This document shows, in pieces, positions 20,986-40,283 of a stretch of 64,000 nucleotides of DNA. The stretch covers positions 544,001 to 608,000 of the forward strand of contig CAWGMQ010000004.1 in the NCBI GenBank assembly GCA_963823665.1, written 5' to 3'. The position numbers were made by a program, and so were the translations under genes. Origin of the DNA: an uncultured Planctomycetota bacterium. Its GTDB lineage: Bacteria; Planctomycetota; Planctomycetia; Isosphaerales; Isosphaeraceae. The notes below the pieces were generated by a model. It was given only the letters and a program-made list of their open reading frames with translations. It did not search any database and had not been told where the DNA came from. Each line of letters opens with the position of its first letter. The first letter of the stretch is position 1.

Positions 20986-22029
20986 ATGCCTAACGAACTC
21001 TCCACCATCACCCCGGCCGGTGACCTATCCACCGGTCGCACCGGCTTCATCCTGCCTGCCGCGATCGCCGACCAGGGCGACAAGGCCGCCGAGCGATTCT
21101 TCACTTTCTTCACCGACACCATTCCGAACGCCAACACGCGCGCCGCTTACTACCGCAACGCCATGCGGTTCTTCGCCTGGACGGAGAAAAAGCGACTGAG
21201 CCTGCCCGCGATCAAGAGCTATCACGTCTCCGCCTACCTGGCCGAACTCACGCTGACCGGCAAGCCGCAACCGGCCAGCACGCCCACGGTCAAGCAGCAC
21301 CTGGCCAGCTTACGGATGCTGTTCGACTGGCTAATTATCGGCCAGATCATCGACGCCAACCCCGCCGCCGCCGTGCGGGCCGCCAAGCACGTCGTCAAGA
21401 AGGGCAAGACGCCCGTGCTCAAAGCCGACCAGGCCCGCGAATTGCTCGACAGCATCCCGCTCAAGATCGGTCCGGAGCCGAAAGAAGGAGAGGAAGACAA
21501 CCGATCGCCGAGCCTGATCGGCCTCCGCGACCGGGCACTGATCGCCGTAATGGTGTTCAGCTTTGCCCGCATCACTGCCGCCCTCGGCATGAAGATCGAG
21601 GACTATTACACCGAAGGCAGGCGGGCCTGGTTCCGCCTGCACGAGAAAGGCGGTAAGCGACACGAAGTGCCCGCCCACCACAACGCCGAGGATTATCTGG
21701 ATGCGTATATCGCGGCGGCAGGCATCGCCGCCGAGCGGAAAACCCCCCTCTTCCGCTCCATCGACCGGCATCGCACGCTGACGGCCAGGCCGATGTCACG
21801 GATCGACGCCTGGAAGATGATCAAGCGCCGTGCCCAGGCTATCGGCCTGCCGGAAGACATCTGCAATCACACCTTCCGGGCAACCGGCATCACAGCCTAC
21901 CTAGAGAACGGCGGCACTATCGAGCACGCTCAGCAGATCGCCAACCACGAAAGCCCAAAGACAACCAAACTCTATGACCGCACCAGCGATCAGATTACGC
22001 TAGACGAAGTAGAACGCATTCTCATATAA
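20986..22029 (+). CDS. Tyrosine recombinase (Xer/resolvase-like)
   Basis: Catalytic set R (FAR), K (HEKGGK), H-x-x-R (HTFR), H (ANH), Y (TTKLYD); LRDRAL; N-terminal SAM-like domain. Confidence 0.92.
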   Translation: MPNELSTITPAGDLSTGRTGFILPAAIADQGDKAAERFFTFFTDTIPNANTRAAYYRNAMRFFAWTEKKRLSLPAIKSYHVSAYLAELTLTGKPQPASTPTVKQHLASLRMLFDWLIIGQIIDANPAAAVRAAKHVVKKGKTPVLKADQARELLDSIPLKIGPEPKEGEEDNRSPSLIGLRDRALIAVMVFSFARITAALGMKIEDYYTEGRRAWFRLHEKGGKRHEVPAHHNAEDYLDAYIAAAGIAAERKTPLFRSIDRHRTLTARPMSRIDAWKMIKRRAQAIGLPEDICNHTFRATGITAYLENGGTIEHAQQIANHESPKTTKLYDRTSDQITLDEVERILI

Positions 22030-22059
22030 TGTTATTATTTATGACTCGGTTCGCATACC

Positions 22060-22287
22060 AAGTCCTTCGCTACCTTTTTGTCAGAACTGCCGATAACTGT
22101 GGATGAGGAGTCCCGAAGCTACGCCTTCACCGACACGATGCACCTGGCCCGCTCGCAACAGCTTTCCGCATACTATGTCGTTTACTTGGAGCTAGCGATG
22201 AGAAGGAACTTGCGGCTTGCGACCCTTGATCAGGGATTACGAGTGGCTGCAAAGCCATTAGGCGTAGCACTTTACGGCGTCCAGTAG
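22060..22287 (+). pseudogene. VapC/PIN toxin C-terminal remnant
   Basis: LSAYYVVYLELAMRRNLRLATLD matches the VapC consensus L.AYDA.YLELA.R....LATLD with the conserved Asp lost. No N-terminus. Confidence 0.65.
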
Positions 22288-22447
22288 AAATCTTTTGCGA
22301 TCTATTCACCGGTACACTAAACTCCAGTGTTGGACGATGCCCGAACCCCTGGGATCGAGAACGAGACTTAGAGAGTTAGGAACCAATGGTGATTATCCAG
22401 GAGAACCTCACTAACCGTCATGTTGTGACCCTGAACAAGAATCGATC

Positions 22448-25297
22448 ATGAACGATCGCGGCCAATGGCTTTTCGAGCTGGGTAAGACCTCATCGACCGG
22501 GGCCGTTGATGGCCTCGTGCTCGTGGACGGTTATTCGCGCGCAGGTAGCCCACCCGAAGAGGTAGCGGTCATGGAGAAGGCCGCGTTCTATAACGCTCAC
22601 TCGGTCTTTTTCGAGTCCGGTCGAAATGGCCGCCCTCCTGTCGCTCAGGCGTTTATTTACCTATCCGAAGGCCACGTCGATGACGCCGCATTCGCCGAGC
22701 TGCATAAACGCCTGTGGAGCTGGGGCGGCGTCCCGCTGCTTTACCGCCGTACCGCCGGATTGGTCCAACTCTTCCGATGCGCCCACAAACCCGATTTCGT
22801 CTCACAGGAAGGCGCAATCATCTGCAAACCCGTCAAAACGTTAAAGATCGCGACGGACATCAGCGCGAGCGAAGCATGGTGGGATGCGTCACGAATTCGC
22901 AATGGCACGCTCTGGGATGACCCGGAAGTGTGCGACGCAATGCTTTCGGCTGGCAAGGCGGCACATAAGGGGTTGATCGATGCCGTAAGACGGCTTAACG
23001 ACGACCTGAACGAGGAAGGAATCCTGAAGAAGCACTTGCGGCGACGCCTGCTGATCCTGTCGCTGCTGATCGCATATTTGGAGGAGCGGGGCGTCCTCTT
23101 ACCGGATTATTTCAGCCAGTTCCTCGCCGGGGCGACGAGGTTTTTTCAGGTGCTGGCGAACGGAGAAGCGCTGGTTGATTTGCTCGCGGCACTGGAGGAA
23201 AGATTCAACGGCCACGTTTTTATCATCGATGATGCAGACAGTGAAAGTCTCAGGAATAGCAATCAACTGAAGCGATTCGCAAAGCTGGTCGAAGGCCGCG
23301 AAGACCCGACCGGGCAACTAACGCTGTGGCAGCTTTACTCGTTCAAGGATCTTCCCGTCGAGCTGATCAGCCACATCTACCAGATTTTCGTAAAGGAGAA
23401 TCAAAGTTCGGTTTACACGCCGCCGTTTCTTGTTCGATTGATGCTGGAAGAGGCGTTGAGCTGGGAAAGACTCGATCGCCTGCAGAAATGCGATGAAATC
23501 ATCCTCGACCCGTCGTGCGGCTCGGGGGTCTTCCTTGTTGAAGCGTATAAGCGATTGGCCCTACATTGGCGCAGCCGCCACAATTGGGAACGGCCGGACA
23601 TTACTGTCCTCCTGGGCCTGCTCACCAAAGTCTACGGGATCGATTTGGAACCCGGCGCAATCGAGCTTGCCGCCTTCAGCCTGTGTCTGGCCCTATGCGA
23701 TGCACTGGAGCCCGAGGAAATCCGCACCAGCATAAAGCTTTTCCCGCCGCTGGCAGGGAAGACACTCCATCAATCGTGCTTCTTCGACGCGAAAGAGATT
23801 GGGCTGGTCAAGGACCACATCGGTGTAGTGGTCGGCAATCCACCCTTCGAGTCCGCCCTGACCACGCCCGGTGCCAAGAAGAGCTACCAGAATTACGAGA
23901 AAAACTTCGGCTCCCTGCCAGACAAGCAATTGGCTTACCTCTTCCTGCACGAGGCAATGGGCATGGTCGCTGAAGGCGGCGTGCTCAGCATGCTTCAAAA
24001 TTACGGATTCTTATACAACCAGAAGTCGCTCGACTTCCGGCGGAACTTTCTGTCGCAATGGGATGTACGTGAAGTCCTGGACTTTATCTCGGTCCGAGGT
24101 TTATTTCAGAAAGGCGGAGCTGATACGAAAGTTATCGTCGTGGTGGCCGTATCCGCACCACCTGCCGCAGATGGCAAGATTCTGCACGCCACATTTCGCC
24201 GTGGCGGGCGAACGGACGCCGAGCAGGGTTTCGACATTGATTATTACGACATGCATTGGCTGCCACGTCACTTGGCACTCACCAACGATCGCGTCTGGCG
24301 GTCGGACCTGTTAGGTGGCGGACGTGTCCTGGGCTTTGTCGATCGCCTGCACGCCATGCGCACGGCGGGCGAATACGCAATGGCCCAGGGATGGGATTGT
24401 GGCGAGGGTTTCATTGAGGGGAAGTCGGGCAAGCTGCATGAATCGGCCCATCTAACTGGTAAGAAACTGATACCCTCTGAGGCCATTTTAGACTCGGGTA
24501 TCGACCGAAGCGAAATTGCCACCGTCGAAGCGAAGCTATTCAAAACGGACTACACGAAGAGCAGATTTACGCCGCCAATGATTCTGATGCGCGAACAGAT
24601 GGACCTTGCCCATGACATCTGGACGGACCACTACCTTACCTACAAGAACAAGGTCGTTGGTTTTTGCGCCGGCGAAGATCAGCTTTCTCACCTCGCCGAG
24701 CTTCACCGCTGGTTCACTGATAATCGCAGGGTCCTCCAAGCCTACGTAGCAGCCATAAGTCTTCGGTTGTTTACTCAGAAGGCCACGACACTTTCGGAGT
24801 GGGATATCCTCGCGCTTCCCTACCCCGAAGACGGCACCATCGACCTCAGCGGAAATGAACAACTCATAGTGGACGATATCGTTGAATACCAAAGAGATTT
24901 CGTCAGGCTTGGCGAGCATTCCTCCGTGATGAAAGAACGCGGTCACGATGCCCTCTCCCCCTTCAGCAGTGTTTTCACGAGCCAGATTAATGCGGTCTAC
25001 AGGAAGAATCCGCTTCAGCCGCTCCGGCCGCAGTCCTGGCCTGGTGTAATCTGCCAACCATTTGTGTTCGGCAAGGGGCAAGTCGATTGGGATGGTGCAG
25101 ACGAGTTGAAGGGCAAACTCAATACTTTGTTGCACAAGAAACACGGCACCACTCTTCATGTCACTCGCATTGCCCGCATTTACGATGGGAATTTCATCTT
25201 CCTATTGAAACCAGACCGCCTCCGCTACTGGCTGCGATCCATCGCCTTGCGCGATGCGGACGAAACGCTCGCCGACCTCCGGGCGCAGGGATTTTGA
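22448..25297 (+). CDS. Large N6-adenine DNA methyltransferase (gamma class, type IIG/HsdM-like, 949 aa)
   Basis: LPVELISHIYQ, VYTPPFLV, ILDPSCGSGVFL (motif I), VVGNPPF (motif IV); C-terminal TRD-like region. Confidence 0.88.
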   Translation: MNDRGQWLFELGKTSSTGAVDGLVLVDGYSRAGSPPEEVAVMEKAAFYNAHSVFFESGRNGRPPVAQAFIYLSEGHVDDAAFAELHKRLWSWGGVPLLYRRTAGLVQLFRCAHKPDFVSQEGAIICKPVKTLKIATDISASEAWWDASRIRNGTLWDDPEVCDAMLSAGKAAHKGLIDAVRRLNDDLNEEGILKKHLRRRLLILSLLIAYLEERGVLLPDYFSQFLAGATRFFQVLANGEALVDLLAALEERFNGHVFIIDDADSESLRNSNQLKRFAKLVEGREDPTGQLTLWQLYSFKDLPVELISHIYQIFVKENQSSVYTPPFLVRLMLEEALSWERLDRLQKCDEIILDPSCGSGVFLVEAYKRLALHWRSRHNWERPDITVLLGLLTKVYGIDLEPGAIELAAFSLCLALCDALEPEEIRTSIKLFPPLAGKTLHQSCFFDAKEIGLVKDHIGVVVGNPPFESALTTPGAKKSYQNYEKNFGSLPDKQLAYLFLHEAMGMVAEGGVLSMLQNYGFLYNQKSLDFRRNFLSQWDVREVLDFISVRGLFQKGGADTKVIVVVAVSAPPAADGKILHATFRRGGRTDAEQGFDIDYYDMHWLPRHLALTNDRVWRSDLLGGGRVLGFVDRLHAMRTAGEYAMAQGWDCGEGFIEGKSGKLHESAHLTGKKLIPSEAILDSGIDRSEIATVEAKLFKTDYTKSRFTPPMILMREQMDLAHDIWTDHYLTYKNKVVGFCAGEDQLSHLAELHRWFTDNRRVLQAYVAAISLRLFTQKATTLSEWDILALPYPEDGTIDLSGNEQLIVDDIVEYQRDFVRLGEHSSVMKERGHDALSPFSSVFTSQINAVYRKNPLQPLRPQSWPGVICQPFVFGKGQVDWDGADELKGKLNTLLHKKHGTTLHVTRIARIYDGNFIFLLKPDRLRYWLRSIALRDADETLADLRAQGF

Positions 25298-25307
25298 GAT
25301 ACGCACC

Positions 25308-26027
25308 ATGTTGGCCAACCAGCACCATCCTACGCCACAAACCGGATCTCTGAACAAGGACGTCCATATAGCGTCCACGTCTATTCATGAGTTGCTGAAC
25401 TTCATCGCCGAGGAATTGCCGCTCTGGCGAGATCGACCGGATCGACCGCAGGAAACTTCCGAAACTAATCTTACGTCGCAATTATGTGCACATTTGAATG
25501 GTGCGGCCCGACACTCGGCCGGATGGGATTTCCTTCAATTTAAGGTCGAAACGCCCGACGAAACAGTGGCAGGCCGCAAAATTGATCTGGTCTCTTCCCC
25601 ATGCGGAGCCACCGTCTGGATCGAGGGACGCCGCCACGTCGAGTTTGATACCCTGCTACCGATCGAATGTAAGAGATTGCCCACACCGAAGGGCAAAGAT
25701 CGTGATGAACGAGAATATGTGATTAGCCAGTATTCCACGACTGGCGGAATTCAACGCTTCAAACAAGGACATCATGGGGCGGCTCATGCTCTGTGCGCGA
25801 TGATCGCCTATGTACAGGATAATTCGAGAAGCCATTGGAGCACTTGCGTTTGCCAGTGGATAACGGATCTAGTCGAGGCCGGACAAGCAGGTTGGTCAAG
25901 CAAAGACACACTCCAGGTCATTCGCAATGACGAAGATCGAAAGCTCACCGTCCTGAGTTCCACGCACGGCAGGGCAAACAGCCTCCCCGATATCGAAATG
26001 TGTCACCTCTGGGTCCAGATGAACTGA
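25308..26027 (+). CDS. Putative PD-(D/E)XK nuclease-fold protein
   Basis: E..LT..L, RKIDLV ... IECKRL, YV....GGIQRF. Starts 10 nt after the MTase stop. Confidence 0.65.
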   Translation: MLANQHHPTPQTGSLNKDVHIASTSIHELLNFIAEELPLWRDRPDRPQETSETNLTSQLCAHLNGAARHSAGWDFLQFKVETPDETVAGRKIDLVSSPCGATVWIEGRRHVEFDTLLPIECKRLPTPKGKDRDEREYVISQYSTTGGIQRFKQGHHGAAHALCAMIAYVQDNSRSHWSTCVCQWITDLVEAGQAGWSSKDTLQVIRNDEDRKLTVLSSTHGRANSLPDIEMCHLWVQMN

Positions 26028-26117
26028 ATCTCATAGGCTCACGCCCCGGCCACCAATTTCATGCGGACGGTGACCGCTTGAAGGCGTCAAACGCCGCTTT
26101 GACCTCCGCTTCTGTGG

Positions 26118-26490
26118 CGAAGTGCGACCACGATGCACTCATGGCCCAGGGCGGCAAGCTGGCGTTGCAGGCCATAGCCACACGGTCCGGCCTCATAACA
26201 GAAGTTGAGTTCGTGGTACTTCGCTGACAAGCGACGGGCCAGCTTATCAACCGCCGCAGGATCGTTTGCGATCTCACCGAAATAACGGACTTCCCCATCC
26301 CTGCCTTCTGAAGCGATGGCAATGGCTATCGTTTTTTTATGCGTGTCTAATCCACTAAATGCTTTAGATTCGTTCATGGCTTACCTCCTGTGATTGAGTC
26401 CCTGCGTCGGCCCATCCGCCGCAATACTCGTCTCCTTGCGTATCACAGACCAGGTAACCCACGCTCGACTTTTGATCATACGGCCTGGTG
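26118..26490 (-). mobile_element. IS110-family element remnant: structured left end plus 5' part of the DEDD recombinase
   Basis: ORF from 26377 reads MNESKAFSGLDTHKKTIAIA...CYEAGPCGYGLQRQL...CIVVA, then breaks near 26118. A long stem lies upstream (26378-26460). Confidence 0.8.
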
Positions 26491-26994
26491 CAGGTCGGCG
26501 ACGGGCAATTGTCACGCCAGCATCGTGCTGGCATGCCAATCGCTGTTCCGTCGCCTGATGGTGGGTCGCTTCGCTCCAGCCGTGATTTGTTCCGGCTCAT
26601 TTCTGCCCCCAGAATTCTGTGGGGGGCAGAAATGGCCGGTTTGCTTTAGGTGGAAGGTCGCTACGCTCCCGTTTCGTGTTTATCCCCCTCCGCCCCCGGT
26701 GGGGGAACGGGGGAAAAAGGAAAGAAGGGTATCGCTGGGTTAGGGCCGCTCCCGTCGGTCGCTCAAAAGTCACCACACAGATTCTTTCCTGCCGAGCCAC
26801 TTACCGCGAAGCGGTCTTCGTCCATATAACGATACGCGGCGACGTGAGCCGCGTTCCGTTTTGTTCTTGCCAGAGGGGGGATTATAAGGGGGGAGATGGG
26901 CAAATCATCTCCCCCCTTATCTAAAACGGTTGCAGCCCTTTCGGGCTGCTCAGTTTGCCGAGCGTAGCGAGGCTTAGTATTGTGTTCTTTGGAG

Positions 26995-27053
26995 TTATCC
27001 ACATACATAGTGTGTTAAATATATGTGTTATATAAGTGTTAAGCTGTGGATAA
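26995..27053. promoter_or_regulatory. Two inverted DnaA boxes flanking an AT-rich unwinding element
   Basis: TTATCCACA at 26995-27003 and TGTGGATAA at 27045-27053; AT-rich interval with repeated GTGTTA. Confidence 0.8.
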
Positions 27054-27096
27054 CTGCTGCTATCTGCTTGAATCCTTGGAACATTCTGCGTCGCTC

Positions 27097-27269
27097 GGTT
27101 TCTGATACCCCGATAAAAGGTTTCTGATTCCCACGGTTTGGTTTCTGATACCCCGATACTTGACATTGGTTTCTAATACCCCGATTCTCTTCCTCGGTTT
27201 CCGATACCCCGATTCTTTTCTTGGGTTTCTGATACCCCGATACTTGACATTGGTTTCTAATACCCCGAT
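27097..27269 (+). repeat. Iteron array of plasmid oriV
   Basis: 18-mer GGTTTCTGATACCCCGAT and variants at 27097, 27119 (degenerate), 27140, 27168, 27196, 27224 and 27252. The last five have a 28-bp period and end 9 nt before repA. Confidence 0.9.
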
Positions 27270-27278
27270 AACATATGC

Positions 27279-28322
27279 ATGGATTCTGATGAACAGATAG
27301 ATAATACCAACCTCTTGCCGCTTCGTCACCAGCAGCATGATCTATTCGTTTGCGACGTAGCTGACGCCGTCCTGAAGGATGACATGGCATCGATGGAGCA
27401 TCCGTTCTTCTCCCTTTCCAAAAAGCCGGAATTGAGCATCCGCCGGTACGAAAACGGTGATCGCTGGGTTGAAGTCGTGCCGAGCGTCAAAGGTCTGGCC
27501 ACGATCTATGACAAGGACATCCTGATCTACTGCATCAGCCAGCTCGTTGCCAAGATAAACAACGGCGACCCTCCCTCCCCTTACGTCAGCATCGTCGCCA
27601 AAGACCTTCTGGTGTTTGTGAATCGCTCGCTTGGCGGCAAGGATTACGATGCCTTAGTCGAAGCGTTGCAACGCCTCGACGGCACACGCATCCGGACCAA
27701 CGTCCGGACCGGAGGTGAGCAAGAATACGAGGGATTCGGCCTGATCGAAGCATTCAAGCTTCGCCGCTCCGACAAAACCGGCCGCATCCTGGAGATCGCC
27801 GTCAAGCTTTCCGACTGGGTATTCCGCTCGATTGCAGCCAAGGAAGTACTGACACTGCACAAGGATTATTTCCGCCTCAGCAAGCCTATCGAACGCCGGG
27901 TCTACGAAATCGCCCGCAAGCATTGCGGAAAGCAGGATCGCTGGAAAATCTCGCTTGATCTGCTCAAGCTGAAGTGCGGATCACGGGCACCCCTCAAAGG
28001 CTTCCGCCACGACATCAAGCAATTGGCCAAAGGCGACCATCTGCCGGACTACTGCGTAACCGTCGATGACGAGGATTTTGTCACCTTCCAGAACCGCAAT
28101 TCGATTAAAGCGATCCCGGCACCCTCGCCCGCCGATTTCCCGAAACTTGACGCCGAGACTTACCACGACGCCAGGCTAGTTGCACCGGGCTATGACGTGT
28201 ATTTTCTCGTGCAGGAATGGCAAAGCTGGTGGTATCAAAGCGGCAAGCCCGCCCTCCGCGACCCCGACGCTGCCTTCCTCGCCTTCTGTCGCAGTCGCCA
28301 CGAAAGAAAACCAAATCCTTAA
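27279..28322 (+). CDS. repA: Plasmid replication initiator, RPA family
   Basis: KDDMASMEHPFFSLSKKP, GLATIYDKDILIYCISQL, DYFRLSKPIERRVYEIARKHCG; adjacent to the iterons. Confidence 0.9.
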   Translation: MDSDEQIDNTNLLPLRHQQHDLFVCDVADAVLKDDMASMEHPFFSLSKKPELSIRRYENGDRWVEVVPSVKGLATIYDKDILIYCISQLVAKINNGDPPSPYVSIVAKDLLVFVNRSLGGKDYDALVEALQRLDGTRIRTNVRTGGEQEYEGFGLIEAFKLRRSDKTGRILEIAVKLSDWVFRSIAAKEVLTLHKDYFRLSKPIERRVYEIARKHCGKQDRWKISLDLLKLKCGSRAPLKGFRHDIKQLAKGDHLPDYCVTVDDEDFVTFQNRNSIKAIPAPSPADFPKLDAETYHDARLVAPGYDVYFLVQEWQSWWYQSGKPALRDPDAAFLAFCRSRHERKPNP

Positions 28323-28328
28323 GCAGGC

Positions 28329-28613
28329 TCAGGCAATGCGGCTGAGGCCGTTCTTGGCGAAGAGGTCGTTGATCGCCTCGACCAGGAGTTCCTGAATGTC
28401 CTTATCCTGCTGCACCGCCAGGAGCTTGAACTGCTTGGCGGCATCCGGCATCACATGGCCAGCGATGAACTGCCGCCCTTCCCTCCCCGTCTTTGTTTGT
28501 TCCTTTGCCCGTTTGCGTGTTTTTGTGTTTGCGGGCAAACTTGGTTGCTTCTCTTGGGCGGGAGCCTGAGTTACCTTATCGACCTTGAATGTAAGCGGTG
28601 CACGTTTGGTCAT
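28329..28613 (-). CDS. Ribbon-helix-helix partition protein (ParG-like)
   Basis: Basic flexible N-terminus then GREGRQFIAGHV..DAAKQFKLLA...IQELLVEAINDLF; downstream of parA. Confidence 0.75.
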   Translation of the reverse strand: MTKRAPLTFKVDKVTQAPAQEKQPSLPANTKTRKRAKEQTKTGREGRQFIAGHVMPDAAKQFKLLAVQQDKDIQELLVEAINDLFAKNGLSRIA

Positions 28614-28912
28614 AGCGATGAACTTCTCTGTTTGATTGTTTGCGTGTATTCTGGTTTTGCCGTTTTTCTGTTTGCGAGCAAAGCTGTTTGCCTACAAGGT
28701 TCGCAAACACGTAAACATGTTGAAGTGTTGTTTGTGTTGCTTCGTTGCGGGTTTATGTGTTTGGCTATTTGATTATTTGCGAGCAAACTTGTTTGCCCGG
28801 TTTGTCGTTTTCCCGTTTGAGTGTTTGCACGCAAACATGTTGCCGGAGCACTCACGCCCGTTTTCTCTTTTTGGCGTTTGACCGCAAAGCCGTTTGCTTG
28901 TTTGCGTGTTTT
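28490..28912. repeat. Centromere-like GTTTGC/GCAAAC repeat field (parS-like)
   Basis: Many GTTTG(C) units; palindromes GTTTGC-NN-GCAAAC near 28527, 28670, 28776 and 28823; similar units upstream of parA (29515-29580). Confidence 0.65.
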
Positions 28913-29514
28913 ATAACCCAGGCGAACAAGGCGTCGATTTCCCCGGCCGCTTTGCTCTTGGGGTCTAGCTCCTGAGCAGTCCGCCCGTCATTCACAGCGT
29001 GCGAGAACGCCACAAGCTGATGAACCAGCGGAGCGGCGACGGCGACGCCCCCTTCTTCCAAAGCAAATCGTGCCTCTTCGCCGACCTTCCCCTGCGGAGG
29101 AACGGCATTGAGCACCACATAGGCAGGCTTTCCGGCGAGTGCGGCAAGATTCAGCGTCGTGCCGATGGCATTCAGATCAAATGCGGCAGGGCGGCAGGGA
29201 ATCAGGATGAGATCAGCAGCCCGTGCCGCCGCCAGCGAAGCGGCATCAGCGTTAGGAGCACTGTCGATGATAACCAGATCAGCCGACTGTGCCGCCGCTT
29301 CTTCGAGCAGCCCCGGTAATCGGGTAGCCTGAGCCGACACGACGGCAGGGGAGGGCTGATTGCGTTTGTCGGACCAGCTCGATGCCGATGCTTGCGGATC
29401 GAGATCAAACAGGGCGGTTTTCATTCCCCGCTTTTCGGCGGCAACGGCCAGGTGAATGCCGATGGTCGTTTTACCAGCCCCGCCTTTCTGGCTGATAATA
29501 GCAATTGTTTTCAT
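28852..29514 (-). CDS. parA: ParA-family Walker ATPase (short, type Ib)
   Basis: MKTIAIISQKGGAGKTT, DLDPQAS, VIIDSAP; no N-terminal HTH. Confidence 0.92.
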   Translation of the reverse strand: MKTIAIISQKGGAGKTTIGIHLAVAAEKRGMKTALFDLDPQASASSWSDKRNQPSPAVVSAQATRLPGLLEEAAAQSADLVIIDSAPNADAASLAAARAADLILIPCRPAAFDLNAIGTTLNLAALAGKPAYVVLNAVPPQGKVGEEARFALEEGGVAVAAPLVHQLVAFSHAVNDGRTAQELDPKSKAAGEIDALFAWVIKHANKQTALRSNAKKRKRA

Positions 29515-29770
29515 GTTTGTACGGTTGTTGGTTGCACCGTTTGCAACTATAGGTGCAAACACCAAAACGAGCAAGCAAATAACGAGGGGAGGGGGTTCCC
29601 GAAGAATGTCCCCCTGACTGCCCGCCCCGCCGAATTGGGAACAAAATGGGAACAGCATTGGCAATATCAGCCCAATGCGGCTACAATGTACTTGAGTAAA
29701 GGCAGTGTCGTAACTGCCTTGGAATCAAAGCCTTTAAGTGTCACTGCAACGTGTTTCCAATACCACGAGT

Positions 29771-29839
29771 ATGGCAGACGTACCGGACTCAAAATCCGGT
29801 CCCCGCACGGCGGTGTGGGTTCAAGTCCCACGTTCGGTA
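29771..29839 (+). tRNA. 5'-truncated tRNA-Leu(CAA); probable att scar
   Basis: TGGCAGACG D-loop, CCGGA-CTCAAAA-TCCGG anticodon arm, long variable arm, GTGGG-TTCAAGT-CCCAC T arm and 3' GTTCGGTA. No complementary 5' acceptor strand upstream. Confidence 0.8.
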
Positions 29840-30211
29840 TTAACAACTCTGGCGAATCGCACCGTCGTTAATCGCCCGCCCGCGTTCGAACATCACGAAC
29901 GGCAGCGCCCGGCCGGTCTCGAAGATGACGACCCACACCGCGCGGCAGCGACCCTCGAGTGACATTCTGTGCTCGGGATGCCGCTCGAGTCGGCGCCCCG
30001 CTGCGGTCGTGACCGTTCCGGCAGGCGAAGTCGGGAGACGGGGGTGGTGGCCCGGAAGTCCAACGTCGGAGATGAGCATGGTGTCTCCAGAACACGGCAT
30101 GTTCAGCGATCGAGTTGAGAACTTGGTTGATCGTCTCCGCGGTGAGGGGCAAGGCTTGGACCTCGACCACGGATTGCGTCTCCGTTGGGTCGGGCGGGAA
30201 GCGGAATTTGA

Positions 30212-31577
30212 TCACCTTGCCTTGGACCTCGTCGAGGTTGCCGGTTCACTGCTGGCTTCCTCAACCGCGACCGGTTGGCCGAACATGCCGTAACGGACGC
30301 CGCTGTCCAGGTCAATGAAGACGGCTTGGCCTCCCGGTAGGCGACCGGGTTCCCCATTTTTGTTTCCCCGCGTCAACTTCTCGGTACCGCGGGCCAGGAG
30401 AAGGAGTCGAGTCATCCGGTTTCCCTTCATCTCGATCAACCCCTTCCAGGTGAGCTTGACCCGGTGCTGCCAGCGTGCGCCATGGGCGTCTTGGCCCTGC
30501 CCCGCGACCCCCGCGACCTCTGATTCGCCGTCGATTCGGACCCAGACAGGACCGTTGCCATCGGTCTCGATTTTTTGACACCAGAACGCACTGTCCATGT
30601 GCTCGCACTTGCTGCCATTCAGGTTGCCCAGGGGGTTCAAGTCGAGTTCCCCCATGAACGCATGGCCGATGAGCACCCTCGCCAGATCGTTGTCGATCTT
30701 GAAGCGGTTCGTGCCGGCGGCGGCGAGCGCTTTCGCCAACCCCTCTTGCCTGACCACGGGCACGTAGAAGCGGTCCTCGAGATAATTTTCCTGGCGCAGC
30801 GTGTCGGCGACGGGCTGGCCATCCTTCTCGAGCGCCCGGCCAAAAACCCGCGCCAAGATGGTCCCCTGCGGGACGCGCGGCTTTGCCGGACAGCTTTCCC
30901 CCTCGCGGTGGCGCTCGACCATCGGCACGACCTTGCCGCCGTCGGCGACATTGGCGAGCTTCTGACTGGGAAACCCCTTGTATCGCTCGGCGGGGAACGG
31001 CTTAGTCGCGTCGGGAAACTCGGCGAACCGCTTCTTAGCATGATCGAGGAAGTCAAGGACGCTCTTGTCGTCGTCGAACATGAAGACCCAGTCGAGCACT
31101 TTTCCCGCGGAGTTGACGACACAGACTCCCTGGGGAAGGATCTTCGAGCGTCCGATCTCGCGATAGAGCCGGCCTTCGTCGTTGTCGGGCGGGTTGTTGA
31201 TCAGTCCGGCCTTGAGGGCCACGGGCACGAAATCGGCGTTCACACGGCGAATGACGTCGGCGTTCGAGAATATCACCTCACGGGTGAGTGCGGCATACCC
31301 TCAGCAGCGCTCGTCGTCAACAGGACGGTCGATGAAGACCCAGAGCAGGGCCGGCTTGTTTTTGGCTCGCGCTTCCCGGAGCCCTTCGAGCAAACAGCTC
31401 TTCCAGTCGATCTCTCGCCAAGCGACTTTCGGCGCTTTCAGGGCGTTGATCTCTGCCTGCAAAGCGTCGAGGGTTACCGGTTTCTTTTCAGCAACGGGAA
31501 CGTTCTGAGCGCCAGCCTGTCCGCACACGAGAACCGGCGAACACCAACGCAGCCGCACTAAGAGTCAATCTCTGCAT
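30212..31577 (-). CDS. Probable exported thioredoxin-fold selenoprotein with C-U-G motif (SELENON-like)
   Basis: ORF 31301-31558 ends at ...PVDDERC-TGA and the same frame continues GYAALTREVIFSN into ORF 30212-31276. ATG at 31577 has RBS AAGGA and a signal peptide (one frameshift near 31535). A hairpin follows the TGA. Confidence 0.72.
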
Positions 31578-32024
31578 GGTTCTCTTTCCTTTCGCGATCG
31601 GGTTGCTCCTAGCTGATCGAGATCGCCCCGCCGGAGAAACCAACTAGACCGTCTGTTATTACTCAAGGGCGAACCGCGAGGTTTCACGGTCTTGGTCGAT
31701 TCTTGAATGAATCGCGATGATCGGCAGAACTTGGGGCTGAGTGGAAACTGGACGGTTGAGATGCACTTTCGCGGAGCGAAAGGCAACAATCTCGCAGTCG
31801 GCTCGTGCGTGAGCCCGTGAGTTCGGCGGCGAGGGGTCCTGGGACGCGCGAGGCGACTTCCGTACGTTCGGATGCCCGTTTGTTCGCGCTGCGCAGTGCG
31901 ACCCGCGTTATCGGAACTCGGTTCATCAAAAAAGCCGGAATCTTCGGGGGCCGGCGCGAAAAAACCTGGGCGTTTTGTAGATCATTTAGGGTAGGGAGCA
32001 TAGGAAACCCTAGGCATTGCAACC

Positions 32025-32075
32025 GAAACCCAAGGCGTTGCCGTTGGGCTATGTTGTTGTGGCCTTTCAGGCCGA
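32025..32075. repeat. REP-like palindromic element
   Basis: ACCCAAGGCGTTGCCGTTGGGCT...GGCCTTTCAGGCC double hairpin in non-coding DNA. Confidence 0.45.
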
Positions 32076-32661: not shown

Positions 32662-33225
32662 CACCACCACCGCCTGCGGTGGCACCTCCCTCACAGGCGG
32701 GGAGGAATGCTGTTTCGTTCCGCTAATCCTTGCGGCATAAGGGCGCGCGACAAATATACAAAACGAAATCACAGGTCAGGGTGGGGGGTGGGAGTGAAGA
32801 GCGGGAGCAGGATTAGGATTAAGATTAGGAATAAGATTAGGATTAAGATTAGGATTAAGATTAGGATTAAGATTAGGACTAAGAGCAGGAGCAGGAGCAG
32901 CACCGGCTTTGGCGACGAGTGCACCGCTGGACTCCGCAGCCATCCGCCTGCTCGCTCCCCCACCGCCGTCTGGGGCGGCACCTCCCTCACAGGGGCGGAA
33001 GGAATGCTGTTTAGCTCCCGTAATCCTTGTGGTGTAAGGGCGCACGACAAATATACAAAACGAAGTGGTCGGTCGGGGTGGACCGTTGAACAGGGAACGC
33101 GGATTGGGATTACGAGTAAGAGCAGGAGCAAGAGCAAGAGTTTGATCGGCGCGGGCGGAACGTCGAGCGATTGCGTTCCCGTAATCCTTGTGGCGTAAGA
33201 ACGCGCGACGAATATACAAAACGAA
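32662..33225 (+). repeat. Three dispersed copies of a 44-bp motif; copies 1 and 2 extend to about 105 bp
   Basis: TAATCCTTG.GG..TAAG..CGC.CGAC.AATATACAAAACGAA at 32724-32767, 33021-33064 and 33182-33225. Confidence 0.85.
32811..32901 (+). repeat. Simple tandem repeat (ATTAGGATTAAG)n grading into (AGCAGG)n
   Basis: Directly visible; gives IRIK-repeat ORFs that are probably spurious. Confidence 0.9.
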
Positions 33226-33805: not shown

Positions 33806-34825
<1,020 letters not shown>

Positions 34826-34839
34826 TCGGGAGGCTTATT

Positions 34840-35740
34840 GTGGCGGGGACTGCGGAGAAATATCTGAAGCCGGAGGTGATCCGGCAGGTTGCGCGGCTGG
34901 ATCTGCGCGCACGATTCATTGTCGAGGGGTTCATCTCGGGGTTGCACGCCAGCCCGTTCCAGGGTTTCTCGGTGGAATTCTCCGAGCATCGCAAGTACAC
35001 GGCCGGTGACAACATTGGAGACATCGACTGGAACGTGTACGCCAAGACCGACCGGTTTTACATCAAGAAATTCCAGGCCGAGACGAATCTGACGGGCTAC
35101 CTCGTGATGGATCTCTCGGCGTCGATGGGGTACACTTACCGACAGGAGCTGACGAAATTTGAATACGGGATCAGCCTGGCGGCGGCCCTTTGTTACTTGA
35201 TGATCCGGCAGCAGGACCCGGTGGGGCTGGTGGCGTTCGATCAGAAGGTCCGGCAGAGCCTCGCCCCGGCGAGCAAGCGGTCGCAGCTCGGGAACATCCT
35301 GTCGATCCTCGCCAAGCTGAAGCCGGCGGGAACGACGAACTTCGAGGCGAGTCTGAACCAGGTCGCCAGCATGATCCGGCATCGCGGGCTGGTGATGCTC
35401 TTCAGCGATTTGCTGGCAGACCCTGAATCGATCTTGCGGGCCATTCATCGGCTGCGATTCCGAGGGCACGACATGATCATTTTTCACATCCTGGACGAGG
35501 CTGAGGCGGAGTTTCCGTTCCAGGGAATGCTTCGTCTGGAAGACAACGAGACCAACGAGATACTCGAGGTCGACGCCGATGCGATCAAGGCTGACTATCT
35601 CGACGAGGTTGCCAAGTTCCGGGCGACTTACAAGCAAGATTGTGTTCGGACGCGAATCGACTACGTTCCGCTGCACACGGGGATGCCGTTCGACAAGGCG
35701 CTCGATGAGCTATCTACTGACGCGGCAGGGCCGAGCTTGA
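34840..35740 (+). CDS. DUF58 / vWA-like protein (frameshift near 35703)
   Basis: SGLHASPFQGFSVEFSEHRKYTAGD..IDWNVYAKTDRFYIK, DLSASM, LFSDLL; corrected C-terminus ...DKALMSYLLTRQGRA. Confidence 0.9.
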
Positions 35741-35761
35741 CGGAGTGGAGTGACTTTCGCC

Positions 35762-37993
35762 ATGGAGCTGTCGATCTTGAATGTGGGGCTGGCCGCGGGG
35801 GGCGCTGCGCTTGCGGCCCTGCCGGTGATACTCCACCTGTTCATGCGTCAGACGCCGAAGCACGTGATCTTCCCGGCGCTGCGGCTGATCCGCGAGCGTC
35901 AGAAGCAATCCAAGAAGCGGATGCGCATCAAGAACTGGCTGCTGCTTCTGGCGCGGATGGCCGTGATCGCGATCATGGCGCTGGCGCTGGGAAGGCCGTC
36001 GGTCCACTCCGACGTTCCTCTGGGATCTGAATCGCAACCGACGGCGATGGGGCTCGTGTTCGACACCTCGCTTTCGATGGGATACATCGAGAGGGACAAG
36101 ACGCGGCTGGACGAAGCGAAGGAGCGCGCGCGCGAACTGCTCGCCAAGCTGCCTGACTCGAGCCAGGTGTTCGTGGTCGACTCGGCGGATCCGCCGGTTC
36201 CTGCGGGGATGTCTCCGTCGGCGGCGCTCAAACGCATCGACTCGCTGACGATCCGGGCGGTCAACCGGCCGCTCAATTCCGCCATGGGGCAGGTCTACGC
36301 CGCGGTCGCCGAGTGCGACCGCCCGCTGCGCGTCGTGTACGTGCTGACGGATCTTTGTCGTACGTCGTGGCTGCCGAACCGGCCGGCGGAAGGGCTCGAG
36401 CAGGTGGAGAAGCTCAAGAAGAAGAAGGGCTCGCGGATCGTGACGTTCATTCTGGGCGTGGCTTCCAAGGAGGTCGACCAACGTTGCGGTTGACACGGCC
36501 GAGCCATCGTCGACGGTCGCGATCCAGGGTGAGCCGATCGAGATTCGGAGCAGGATTCGATCGGAAGGGACGAAGCCGACGACCCGGGTCGTGGAGTTCA
36601 CGGTCGACGGCCAGAAAAAGGATGAGAAGACACTCGAGATCCCGCCCAAGGGAGTGGTTGAGGTGAACTTCATGGCGCTGCCGCGAGGGGGTGAGGGGAA
36701 CCTGCACCAGGGGAAGATCAGGCTCAGCGGCGCACCCGATCCGTATCGCGGCCGATGACGAGCGGTTTTTCAGCTTCCGGGTTCGGCCGCCGCTCAAGGC
36801 GCTGCTCGTCTACGACGATCCGTACGACACATCGTTCGTTGCGGCGGCGCTCGATCCCAACCCCGCGGCGGCCGCGCTGCGACCGATTCAGGTCGAGAAG
36901 GTGACGGCCAAGGAGCTGGGCGCTCGTTATAACGGCAATCTTCAAGACTTCGCGGCGATCTTCCTGCTGAACGTGCGGAGGCTCGAGGAAGCCGACTGGA
37001 TCGCGCTGAATCGCTACGTGCACAGGGGAGGGGGGTTGGTGGTGGCACCCGGGCACCTGAGCGACCCGGCGAACTACAACTCGGTGAGCCAGCTTCTGCC
37101 GGGACAGCTTGGGGCGGAGCCGCACATCGCCCAACCGCCGACCAACATGGACAGACGTCACCAACCTGACACACCCGCTCTTCGAGCGGTACGGCAAGGA
37201 CCTGGCGACCGTGCTCGCAAACCCTCCGGTTTACAAGTACTGGCCGATTCGGGGCGAGACGGCCGCGGGGCTCGTGCTTGTGCGGTTTCGCGACGGAGCG
37301 CCGGCGCTTTTGGAGCGGACGTTCAAGGGGCCAAAGGTCGGCAAGGTGTTGCTCTGGACGCTGCCTCTATCGCGCCGGGCCGATAAGGGCGGGGCGATCG
37401 GGAGGTCGGCAGCGGCCTTCAGCGAGTTCCCGCTGTACGACCCGTATGGCTGGTCGTTCATCGCGCTCATGGATCGGACGGTCCCGTATCTCTCCGGCGG
37501 GACGAGCGAACAGCTCAATTTCGACGCAGGGGAGAATGTGCTGCTGCGGCTTGATCCGACGGCGCGTCTCTCGAAGTTCGTGATCAGCGGTCCGGACCAG
37601 AAGCCCAAACCGCTTCCCTCGCCCAGCGGCGAATACCTCGAGGTGCCGGCGCCGCCGGCCCTGGGCATCTGGACGGTTCAGGCGACGACGGCCGACAACC
37701 GCGCGGCAGTCCTGGGGTTCAGCGTGAACATGTCGAGGGACCCGAATCACGATGAAAGCCGATTCGCGCACGTGGAGAAAGACGATTTTGATGCGATCTT
37801 CGGCAAGGACGGCTATCTGCTGGCGGAGGACGCCGCCGCGCACCAAGAAAAGGAGAAGCTCACGCGGTACGGATACGAAGTCTTTCCCTGGCTCATGTTC
37901 TTGATCCTCACGATCGTCACGCTGGAGAACATTCTGGCCAACACATTTTACAAGGAAGCGCCCAGCGGCAAGAAGACGGCCGCGGCTGCGTGA
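35762..37993 (+). CDS. BatA-domain / vWA membrane protein (frameshifts near 36478, 36745, 37148)
   Basis: LPVILHLF.RQ.PK.VIFPALRLI...LLLLARM, FDTSLSM MIDAS-like motif, YVHRGGGLVV, C-terminal TM helix. Confidence 0.85.
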
Positions 37994-38032
37994 ACGGGCG
38001 GGGAGCTTTCCTGGTTGGATCTTGGTGGCAAC

Positions 38033-40283
38033 ATGAATCACGGAATCAGTGTGAGCTTCAGTCCGATCGGCGGTTCGTGGGCGCTCTTGCTCGTGGCCAT
38101 CGCGATGGTGACGGCGCTGACGCTTTGGGCCTACGCCAAGCGACTCAAGGGCACGACCGGCAGGTGGCGATGGTTTGCGCTGTCGCTTCGACTGCTGGCG
38201 ATCTTGCTCTGCCTGATGGCGGCGCTGCGGCCGAAGGTGACGCTCAACGAGAAGAAGAAGCAAGCCGCGACTCTTGTCTATCTGATCGACTCGAGCAAGA
38301 GCATGACCCTGGTCGACGAGGTGAACGGGCAATCGCGGTGGAGCGTGGCCAAGCAAATTCTCAAGCAGGCGCAGGAAGAAGCCAAGACGCTGGGGCCCGA
38401 CCTGAGCGTGAAGATCCACTTATTCGACTCAACGCTCGCCGAGCCCAAGCCGAATGAGAAAGGAGACTACGCCGAGCCCAAGGGGCTCGAGACGAAGCTG
38501 GGCGTGGCGATCCTCGAAGCCAACAAGGCCGAGCAGATCAATTCGAAACGGATTGCGCGATTCGTGATCGTCTCGGACTTCGCATCCAACAGCGGCACCG
38601 ACCCGCTCGAAGCGGCGCGGCAGGTGAAGGGGTCAGACCAGGCGATCAAGTTCATCACGGTCGGCCTGGGGGCCGAGAGCGCCGGGCCTAACCAGCGAGA
38701 CGTCGCGCTCAAGGACATCATCACGAGCCCGACCGTGTTCGTGAAGAACCAGGTCGAAGTGCGGGGAACGGTGGTCGCGCACGGATATGCCAACCAGGAT
38801 CTGAACGTCGAGCTTTACGTCGAGGGCCAGGCAACGCCCGTGGCCAAGACCACGGTGAAGGTCAAGGAAGGGGCCGAATCGGTGCCAATCACCGGACTCA
38901 GGTTCGTGCCGCAGACGCCGGGGGAGAAGCTGCTCACGATGAAGGTCGCGCTCAAAGACAACGAATCGATGAAATCGAACAATGAGATGAGCACGTTTGT
39001 GACTGTATTGAGCGGCGGATTGAACGTGCTGTTTCTGCAGGGTTCGAACTCGACGTGGGATTACCGCTTCCTGGGAAGGTCGATCATGCAGTCGACGGCG
39101 ATCCAGATGGATGGATTCGTCATCCGGCGGCCTGCGCAGGCAGATAAGAGCGAGGTGGAGGACACCGTGTTCGCCCCCAACAAGTACAACGTATATGTAT
39201 TCTGCAACTTGCCGGCCGATTACTTGACACCGAAACAGCAGGCGCTCCTGGTCGAGGCGGTGAAGAAAGGCGCCGGGTTCATCATGCTGGGCGGCCACGC
39301 GAGCTTCGGGCCCGGCGGCTGGGCGGATACGCCGGTTGCGGAGATTCTGCCCTGCACGATCCACCCCGGTGACGGCGAGATCGAGGAAGGGATCAAGCTT
39401 ATACCGACGACTATCGGGTCTCGATCAGTTCATGCTGAAAGTTGGTGCGACCACGGCTGAGACCACGAAAATCTGGGATTCGATGCCGCCGATGCGTGGC
39501 ACGAACCGGTTCGGCGTACCCAAGCTCAATGCCGTAGTTCAGGCGACATCACCGGCCCCGGATGCCGAGCCCTTGATGATGAGCATGGATGTGGGCTTGG
39601 GAAGGGTGATCGCCTTTGGCGGGGAGACGTGGGTCTGGGCGCGCCAGACCGAGGAAGGGCGGCTGGCACACCGGAAGTTCTGGCGGCAGTCGATATTCTG
39701 GCTATCGCACAAGGAAGACGACAGCGAGAACCAGGTCAAGCTGACTCTCGACCGACGGCGGATCGGCGTGGGTGAGAAGCTTGAACTGTCCGCGACCGCC
39801 CGCGACGCGAAGGGTGCGTCGATTCTCGATGCGACCTACGAATGCAAGATCGTGCGTGACGGGCCCGAGCCCGTGACCGAGCCGGTTGAGCTTTATCCTC
39901 AGGGCGAACAGGCGCGCGCGACGCGCTACGCGACCGAGCATCTTGGCGTTCCGGCGAACTACACGGCAACAGTGATCGCCCGCCGTGGCGGCAAGGAGAT
40001 CGGCCACGATTCGGCTCGCTTCCTGGTGTATCAGGACGACCGAGAGCTGGAAAACCCTTCCGCCGACCTCAAGCTGGCGAAGGAGATCGCCGAGCTGACC
40101 GGCGGCGAGCTGGTCACTCCCGAAAAGCTGGCGACGCACCTGAAGGGCATCGACCGCTCGGCATACACGGAGTACGTGACCGACTCTCAATACGAGGTCT
40201 GGGACAACTGGCCCTTCATGCTGGTTTTCGCCGCGATCCTCACCCTTGAATGGTGGCTGCGCAAGCGCCATGGGTGGGTTTAG
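38033..40283 (+). CDS. vWA + glutamine-amidotransferase-like membrane protein (frameshift near 39420)
   Basis: LIDSSKSM, IVSDF, GAGFIMLGGHASFGPGGWADTP, VGLGRV, C-terminal LTLEWWLRKRHG. Confidence 0.85.

Follow-up and report, generated by a model that had tools for sequence, protein, structure and literature searches.

A putative family of exported bacterial selenoproteins in a paralogous branch of the selenoprotein N superfamily, with a truncated member

A defect in selenoprotein N (SELENON, or SEPN1) causes congenital myopathy. The eukaryotic protein runs from a type II membrane anchor through an EF-hand and a beta domain to a C-terminal thioredoxin domain, in which selenocysteine (Sec, U) lies in the motif S-C-U-G. 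The available parts of published sources list SelN among metazoan additions (PMC7016017), report it from algae (PMC7539508), give SCUG as the motif of SELENON orthologues (PMC12839072) and describe an action of SELENON on SERCA (PMC9344019). Our PDB searches returned no solved relative of SELENON, and its middle domain carries no family name. No description of bacterial SELENON relatives was found in the literature as far as it was available to us, and supplements may hold such sequences. Thesis-level work has reportedly dealt with a SELENON orthologue from Poribacteria, so the existence of bacterial SELENON orthologues may not be new. As for bacterial thioredoxin-like selenoproteins, the catalogued models (VPGUxxT, NF041382/NF041383; Trx7/PDZ, NF041199; SaoT; TsoB) share fold class and Sec use with the gene described here, but their motifs differ. 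None of the 119 families in Table 1 of PMC13188914 is described as SELENON-like, and Planctomycetota go unmentioned in the available part of that paper.

The gene lies in a window of 64,000 nucleotides (G000:C4:544001-608000), the whole stretch of DNA analysed, which is part of a 16.5-Mb assembly (G000). Among named genomes, those nearest to it are Isosphaeraceae and other Planctomycetota MAGs. On the minus strand, a frame interrupted by TGA 31303-31301, with TGC before it, is otherwise open from 31558 to 30212. The initial annotation had read this frame as continuous across the TGA, and both that reading and the peptide quoted for it held. The extent given for the gene (30212-31577, 1366 nt, as one frame) did not, because ATG 31577, taken as the start, is out of frame with TGA 31303-31301 and its frame hits a stop after 29 codons. 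The encoded protein is in register with eukaryotic SELENON at C-U-G, at the Arg of U+7 and at N..F, and both proteins act outside the cytosol, by prediction in the case of the window gene. However, the window gene has R-C-U-G in place of S-C-U-G, has a cleavable-looking signal peptide but neither EF-hand nor type II membrane anchor, places its thioredoxin domain first and a beta-rich domain (domain B) second, and carries its SECIS inside the coding region, unlike eukaryotic SELENON. Taken as a whole, the best explanation, to which we assign a probability of about 0.68, is that the gene is a truncated copy from an exported Sec-containing family that would form a paralogous branch of the SELENON superfamily. 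Its features are collected in Table 1.

Table 1. Positions of the selenoprotein gene, its parts and the adjoining mobile DNA within the window
Feature	Position	Strand	Basis
Integrated element: tyrosine integrase, Eco57I-type methylase (949 aa), unknown 257-aa gene, RepA, ParA	20986-29664		
tRNA-Leu(CAA)-like sequence at edge of integrated element, not part of the gene	29754..29840	+	
46-nt remnant of C-terminal domain, read out of frame, source of early stop	30201..30246	-	Orthologue alignment, blastn
Selenoprotein gene as assembled, ATG 31577 to TGA stop 30212	30212..31577	-	ORF reading and orthologue alignment
445-nt deletion junction	30246..30247	-	Orthologue alignment; contigs of relatives leave the window at 30247
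Beta-rich domain (domain B)	30272..30859	-	AF2 model, profile comparisons (hhalign)
Thioredoxin-fold domain, SSP411 / DsbD-gamma / AGR / UAS type	31016..31447	-	
Upper hairpin of the putative bacterial SECIS: UCACC/GGUGA stem around the loop CGUGA, whose first G lies at 31281	31273..31287	-	Covariation, geometry
Cys-Sec dyad (putative): TGC 31306-31304, TGA 31303-31301	31301..31306	-	Sec aligned with first Cys of CxxC
Signal-peptide-like N-terminus, out of frame in the assembly	31508..31577	-	Inspection
Extra T (TT; one base in orthologues)	31531..31532	-	Alignment to orthologues, Illumina contigs of relatives
5' leader, kept in orthologues	31578..31704	-	blastn of 13 orthologous loci against the window

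We examined the internal TGA in the host and in related genomes. The initial annotation had named selA, selB, selC and selD, together with homologues having TGA or Cys at this column, as the evidence to look for. All four genes are present in the host genome: selA, selB and selD score above curated cut-offs, and a tRNA-Sec (selC) has the anticodon TCA. Matches were found in 13 of 61 related genomes. Of the 24 non-self matches, 22 have a single in-frame TGA, and the remaining two leave the TGA column uncovered. A search with domain profile A1 across 301 Planctomycetota genomes gave 150 listed matches, with 355 weaker ones beyond. As counted by hand, 143 of the 150 listed have one TGA and seven have none; the best 119 have it without exception, and the stop among the listed matches is always TGA, never TAA or TAG. 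When the column was read in fetched DNA, 65 of 72 distinct loci had TGA, four had another codon and three a Cys codon (TGT in L091, TGC in L093 and L214), one of these three being an ordinary CxxC thioredoxin; homologues with TGA and homologues with Cys both occur. Among 149 database representatives, 80 are fragments that fail to span the Sec column, and the 69 that span it have Cys (23), Ser (16), Asp (7) or something else (23), although some of the database Cys could be annotated Sec. Furthermore, selA occurs in 85 of the 86 genomes with a TGA match of E 1e-20 or better as against 221 of 301 overall, kin among these genomes not being independent, and no selB above cut-off was found in G337 and G197, whose fetched member has Cys or Ser. 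Because of the Sec machinery, the conservation of the codon, the Cys homologues and a covarying hairpin, we read this TGA as a Sec codon, an assignment that we regard as nearly certain for a sequence-based one. The same genome holds a second hidden Sec-thioredoxin gene (L058:724-2379, minus strand; G000:C5 near 95800-96100) with the motif F-T-U-N-N, a hairpin of its own after the TGA and a C-terminal part unlike that of the window gene. Family genes also occur as tandem pairs (L089, L202; G164:C42, G125:C57), and in L089 and L202 one gene of the pair has Sec and the other Ser or Asp.

The hairpin behind the TGA was characterized in 58 contexts that align without gaps. In the window it reads UCACC-CGUGA-GGUGA, that is, five base pairs and a 5-nt loop whose second base is G, the loop being separated from the UGA by 18 nt; counted from the U of the UGA, the stem occupies positions 17-21/27-31. 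Across the 58 contexts, 84.6% of stem cells are paired with 85 double changes (covariation 0.66), a level reached in none of 500 shuffles, and slid controls gave 30-46% (maximum 45.6%); the covariation that the initial annotation had proposed to look for was thus found. Under synonymous shuffling, 182 paired cells (maximum 207 in 2000) compare with 246 of 290 observed, and 6.5 full stems (maximum 16) with 38 of 58. The full stem occurs in none of nine non-Sec loci. The Arg codon of the loop is CGT in 37 of 58 contexts versus 158 of 1849 elsewhere in the same genes, and the loop G is invariant in the family SECIS; presumably G23-U24 matches the E. coli fdhF element. According to the available part of PMC13188914, a consensus SECIS has a loop of 3-9 nt with G in its first two positions, a stem of 4-16 bp, a distance of 16-37 nt from the UGA and an energy of at most -7.5 kcal/mol. 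The window element fits this geometry; its upper stem alone gives -5.6 kcal/mol against the consensus -7.5, and -10.5 with the lower stem. The predicted SECIS is therefore canonical in geometry rather than atypical: the initial annotation had considered that it may be non-canonical for want of an early G, but the conserved loop CGUGA has one in second place. A hairpin starting at the UGA, as proposed there, can indeed fold (-15.4 kcal/mol); its apex UCA-CCCG-UGA, however, is not the conserved one, with 57% of cells paired versus 84.6% for the CGUGA-loop stem. Note that the naked RNA reaches its minimum energy in another fold than the conserved hairpin; the conserved stem wins (probability 0.76-0.84) only with the first 12 or more nt held open, as would be the situation on a ribosome. 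Further Sec-thioredoxin subfamilies (L198-L216, L099-L102) have other C-terminal parts and motifs (G-L-U-S, F-C-U-T-N, G-C-U-A), some without Cys beside U, and in many the SECIS belongs to a second class, marked by a stem of the GAGAG/CUCUC type and by the rare Arg codons AGA/AGG.

We next consider the state of the window copy. With the signal peptide, thioredoxin fold and domain B predicted for it, the gene belongs to a large family of this build, of which a helical tail after domain B appears as an extra of its own subfamily. The initial annotation had held that the break at the TGA, unlike others in the window, is not an indel. This stands as far as the TGA is a Sec codon, yet elsewhere the gene does have an indel and an internal deletion. 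Relative to six orthologues there is one extra T near 31532, absent also from two Illumina contigs of relatives. The putative signal peptide, which by inspection has a basic start, a hydrophobic core and AGA ahead of the mature chain, agrees with the signal peptide first proposed but is out of frame in this assembly because of that T. A hydrophobic stretch upstream of U is present in 48 of 53 Sec members versus 2 of 53 in a control stretch. At the other end, the window gene lacks 445 nt at the junction 30247/30246, after which a 46-nt remnant follows and homology ends at 30201; the loss takes most of a C-terminal helical (LTXXQ-like) domain, for which two relatives gave weak LTXXQ hits, and shifts the frame. 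Upstream of the 5' leader (31704), blastn of the 13 orthologous loci found no shared sequence. The window gene thus has 362 codons after the TGA versus 547-553 in eight of ten distinct close orthologues (the remaining two have frameshifts of their own), and 454 codons in all, if the extra base is an assembly error, versus 642 in intact orthologues.

These lesions could mean that the family is real but the window copy is a young pseudogene, with a signal-peptide frameshift, a 445-nt deletion and a 3' truncation beside an integrated element; this is the strongest of the alternatives, though still the less favoured view. Three lesions against orthologues that are 92-95% identical to the window gene, the absence of a further copy from the genome and the border of a mobile element 360 nt off speak for it. 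On the other hand, the MoxR-vWA cluster at 33806-40283 of the window contains five single-base insertions in 6.6 kb, which break genes that are whole in the congener G001, and since these resemble the extra T, the latter is probably also an assembly error of the long-read consensus type. The deletion, which is either real damage or a misassembly, falls directly after domain B, where most family members end, so that the copy would keep both core domains and lose the helical tail. In addition, the codon and the SECIS are unharmed, and the private changes of the window copy (14 synonymous, 15 not) are similar to those of orthologues, without an excess of amino-acid changes. We therefore lean towards a living copy. 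A stand-alone, predicted exported protein of 222 aa (L227:1426-2094) consists only of the helical domain that the window gene has lost. As for the surroundings, the sequence resembling tRNA-Leu(CAA) that borders the element is one of 28 degenerate copies in G000 (the other 27 with 79-97% identity), which look as if left by repeated integration. Positions 32707-33219 hold a low-complexity (Ile-Lys/Arg)n repeat with duplicated flanks, and 32029-32074 gave a weak Acido-Lenti-1 RNA match under the gathering score.

The window protein has no Pfam or NCBIfam match above curated cut-offs. Its N-terminal domain has a four-stranded core, flanking helices and the redox residue at the start of helix 2, as in a thioredoxin fold, and its best structural matches are Thioredoxin_7, Thioredox_DsbH (SSP411), DsbD-gamma, DsbH, AGR2-ERp18 and UAS folds, families to which the window family gives only weak Pfam hits below cut-off. 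Folds of the Thioredoxin_7 type use CxxC, whereas the window gene has Sec aligned with the first of these Cys, no Cys at +3 and a separate branch in the tree. The catalogued thioredoxin-like selenoprotein models did not match the window domain (threshold E 1) or full-length members (threshold E 0.01), apart from weak matches of NF041383 (best E 1e-4) to 13 of 18 family members. For comparison with SELENON, a metagenome motif scan gave 84 matches, of which 80 were fetched and yielded 11 long eukaryote-type frames and four bacterial-type ones. With one transcript as query, proteins bearing the name Selenoprotein N were retrieved at some 40% identity, and all four SELENON-type sequences scanned gave weak EF-hand hits. 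Note that these loci were picked by their motif, and tests were repeated with the motif masked.

The family profile matched SELENON in hhalign at 96.4% (E 1e-9 for a single pair, 103 columns), and for a natural Cys relative the Atlas ranked the Selenoprotein N cluster third (0.90, 187 features). The gapless match at DD, C-U-G, RE and N..F described by the initial annotation holds against the retrieved SELENON-type sequences, but that at DD is partly luck, as the nearest sister subfamily has its DD two residues further from U. Single-sequence BLASTP of the window protein against named SELENON was not significant (E 0.21), and with the motif masked the window domain scored 4.6 bits on the SELENON-domain profile, no better than ordinary thioredoxins. 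In domain trees whose root is weakened by long branches, nine ordinary Thioredoxin_7 domains branch apart from all the Sec-type ones (support 98/94; 89 after masking of the motif), and a single clade (100/100; 99 after masking) unites the bacterial orthologues with eukaryotic SELENON, the window gene lying outside it. The thioredoxin domain is thus very probably homologous to that of SELENON. The label 'SELENON-like' first given to the gene applies to this domain, but the gene is by these comparisons a paralogue and not an orthologue.

Full-length bacterial SELENON orthologues with TGA and SECIS were also encountered in Planctomycetota genomes and metagenomes (L187-L196, L182, L141, L124), without a Pfam or NCBIfam family. 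Like the window gene, they are predicted to be exported Sec-thioredoxins, and their SECIS lies in frame, roughly 18 nt after the UGA; unlike it, they have the beta domain first and the thioredoxin second, and their N-part matches eukaryotic SELENON at 99.9%. SELENON-type proteins thus have about 200 residues before the thioredoxin domain, in common between bacteria and eukaryotes. We compared this region with domain B, whose AF2 model has a pLDDT of 91 and a pTM of 0.89 and which has no Pfam family and no clear solved relative. Domain B of the R-C-U-G subfamily matched the pre-thioredoxin region of the bacterial orthologues at 88%, and at 94% with more sequences (E 1e-7 for a single pair, as for all hhalign E-values; 115 columns), and a three-sequence intermediate group did so at 92.5%. 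For one sister subfamily, the match to the bacterial orthologues reached only 55%. When the SELENON pre-thioredoxin profile was run over 1.07 million residues, its best two hits (E 6e-5, 6e-4) fell in domain B, and the third was an opposite-strand decoy. These matches suggest that the domain order is swapped with respect to SELENON, which we consider a moderately favoured reading of the profiles; tandem copies are a plausible route to it. Eukaryotic SELENON would then probably also have the beta domain in common with the window family, and the C-terminal part that was initially called an uncharacterised domain is probably the counterpart of SELENON's pre-thioredoxin domain.

It is nevertheless possible, if rather unlikely, that only the thioredoxin domain is common to SELENON and that the likeness of domain B reflects convergence of two beta-sheets. 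Domain B of the window gene's own subfamily matches the SELENON-type proteins at only 2% directly and joins via sister subfamilies only (95% and 80%), the match to animal SELENON by itself is 27%, a single motif of about 45 columns supplies the strongest signal, and with domain B alone the Atlas did not place SELENON among its top three. Against convergence, two independent subfamily profiles reach 88-94% over 110-130 columns, whereas reversed templates stayed under 0.5% (0.2%) and none of 40 block shuffles reached the score, and the Sec domain is also common to both proteins.

Regarding function, SelB would bind the hairpin 18 nt behind the UGA and insert Sec, which would take the place of the attacking Cys of CxxC; with the usual resolving Cys absent, the neighbouring Cys probably closes a vicinal selenenyl-sulfide. 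The most likely job, suggested by the fold and by analogy with SELENON and put forward with only slight preference, would be to act as a reductase on oxidised cysteines in selected proteins of the envelope; domain B would pick the client and a membrane electron donor would recycle the enzyme. No conserved gene neighbours hinting at a client protein were found. Alternatively, and in our view improbably, the module could sense redox state or a ligand instead of working as a turnover enzyme; Sec would report how oxidised the envelope is, and domain B would bind a partner. Among 59 whole database relatives (from P0122-P0219), 22 carry the thioredoxin plus beta module, mostly without Cys or Sec, as a fusion behind an ECF sigma factor (4), a Ser/Thr kinase (5) or a FecR-type anti-sigma domain (13), and since the Sec column lacks Cys in 18 of these fusions, the two-domain module seems to have a role without the chemistry. 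The stand-alone forms, however, keep Sec nearly without exception and at the cost of a SECIS, and the fusion count is biased, as Sec-bearing fusions would be split in protein databases.

Two further explanations fare much worse than the paralogous Sec family. That the window gene is itself a true bacterial SELENON orthologue is very improbable: it matches without gaps round C-U-G and is the sole match in G000 for a profile of three bacterial SELENON-type proteins, but this match (E 2.8e-5) spans only 65 of 412 positions, whereas 8 of the 401 Planctomycetota genomes searched have near-full-length matches with E-values under 1e-54; the SELENON clade leaves the window gene out, and its domain order differs. 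A genuine stop codon, or a sequencing error, between two separate genes can practically be dismissed as the explanation of the TGA, since, although protein databases hold only pieces and 108 of 120 close relatives start at query residue 87 or 95, it would split one thioredoxin fold in two, TAA or TAG never takes its place among the 150 matches listed, uninterrupted Cys homologues exist in DNA and the hairpin covaries.

The central claim of the initial annotation, a hidden exported thioredoxin-fold selenoprotein related to SELENON and split by annotation, is thus borne out, its export being predicted. Considered jointly, the results tip slightly towards an old bacterial two-domain selenoprotein module that would exist in both orders, related by permutation, and also in a sensor use without Sec. 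Both arrangements would be carried by bacteria, above all Planctomycetota; the beta-then-thioredoxin form would be the direct ancestor of eukaryotic SELENON, which gained its EF-hand later, and sigma factors, anti-sigma factors and kinases would use the Sec-free module as their sensor on the outside. With both domains present in soluble bacterial proteins, natural Cys forms among them, the structure, client recognition and catalytic cycle of SELENON may become directly testable, and an intact orthologue (such as L053) or a true SELENON orthologue (L187-L196) suits experiments better than the damaged window copy. For the family, this means a large and uncatalogued group of bacterial selenoproteins with predicted export. 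For the phylum, it means that a major user of Sec (selA in 221 of 301 genomes) would carry many exported selenoproteins that annotation cuts in two and that are missing from the current catalogue.
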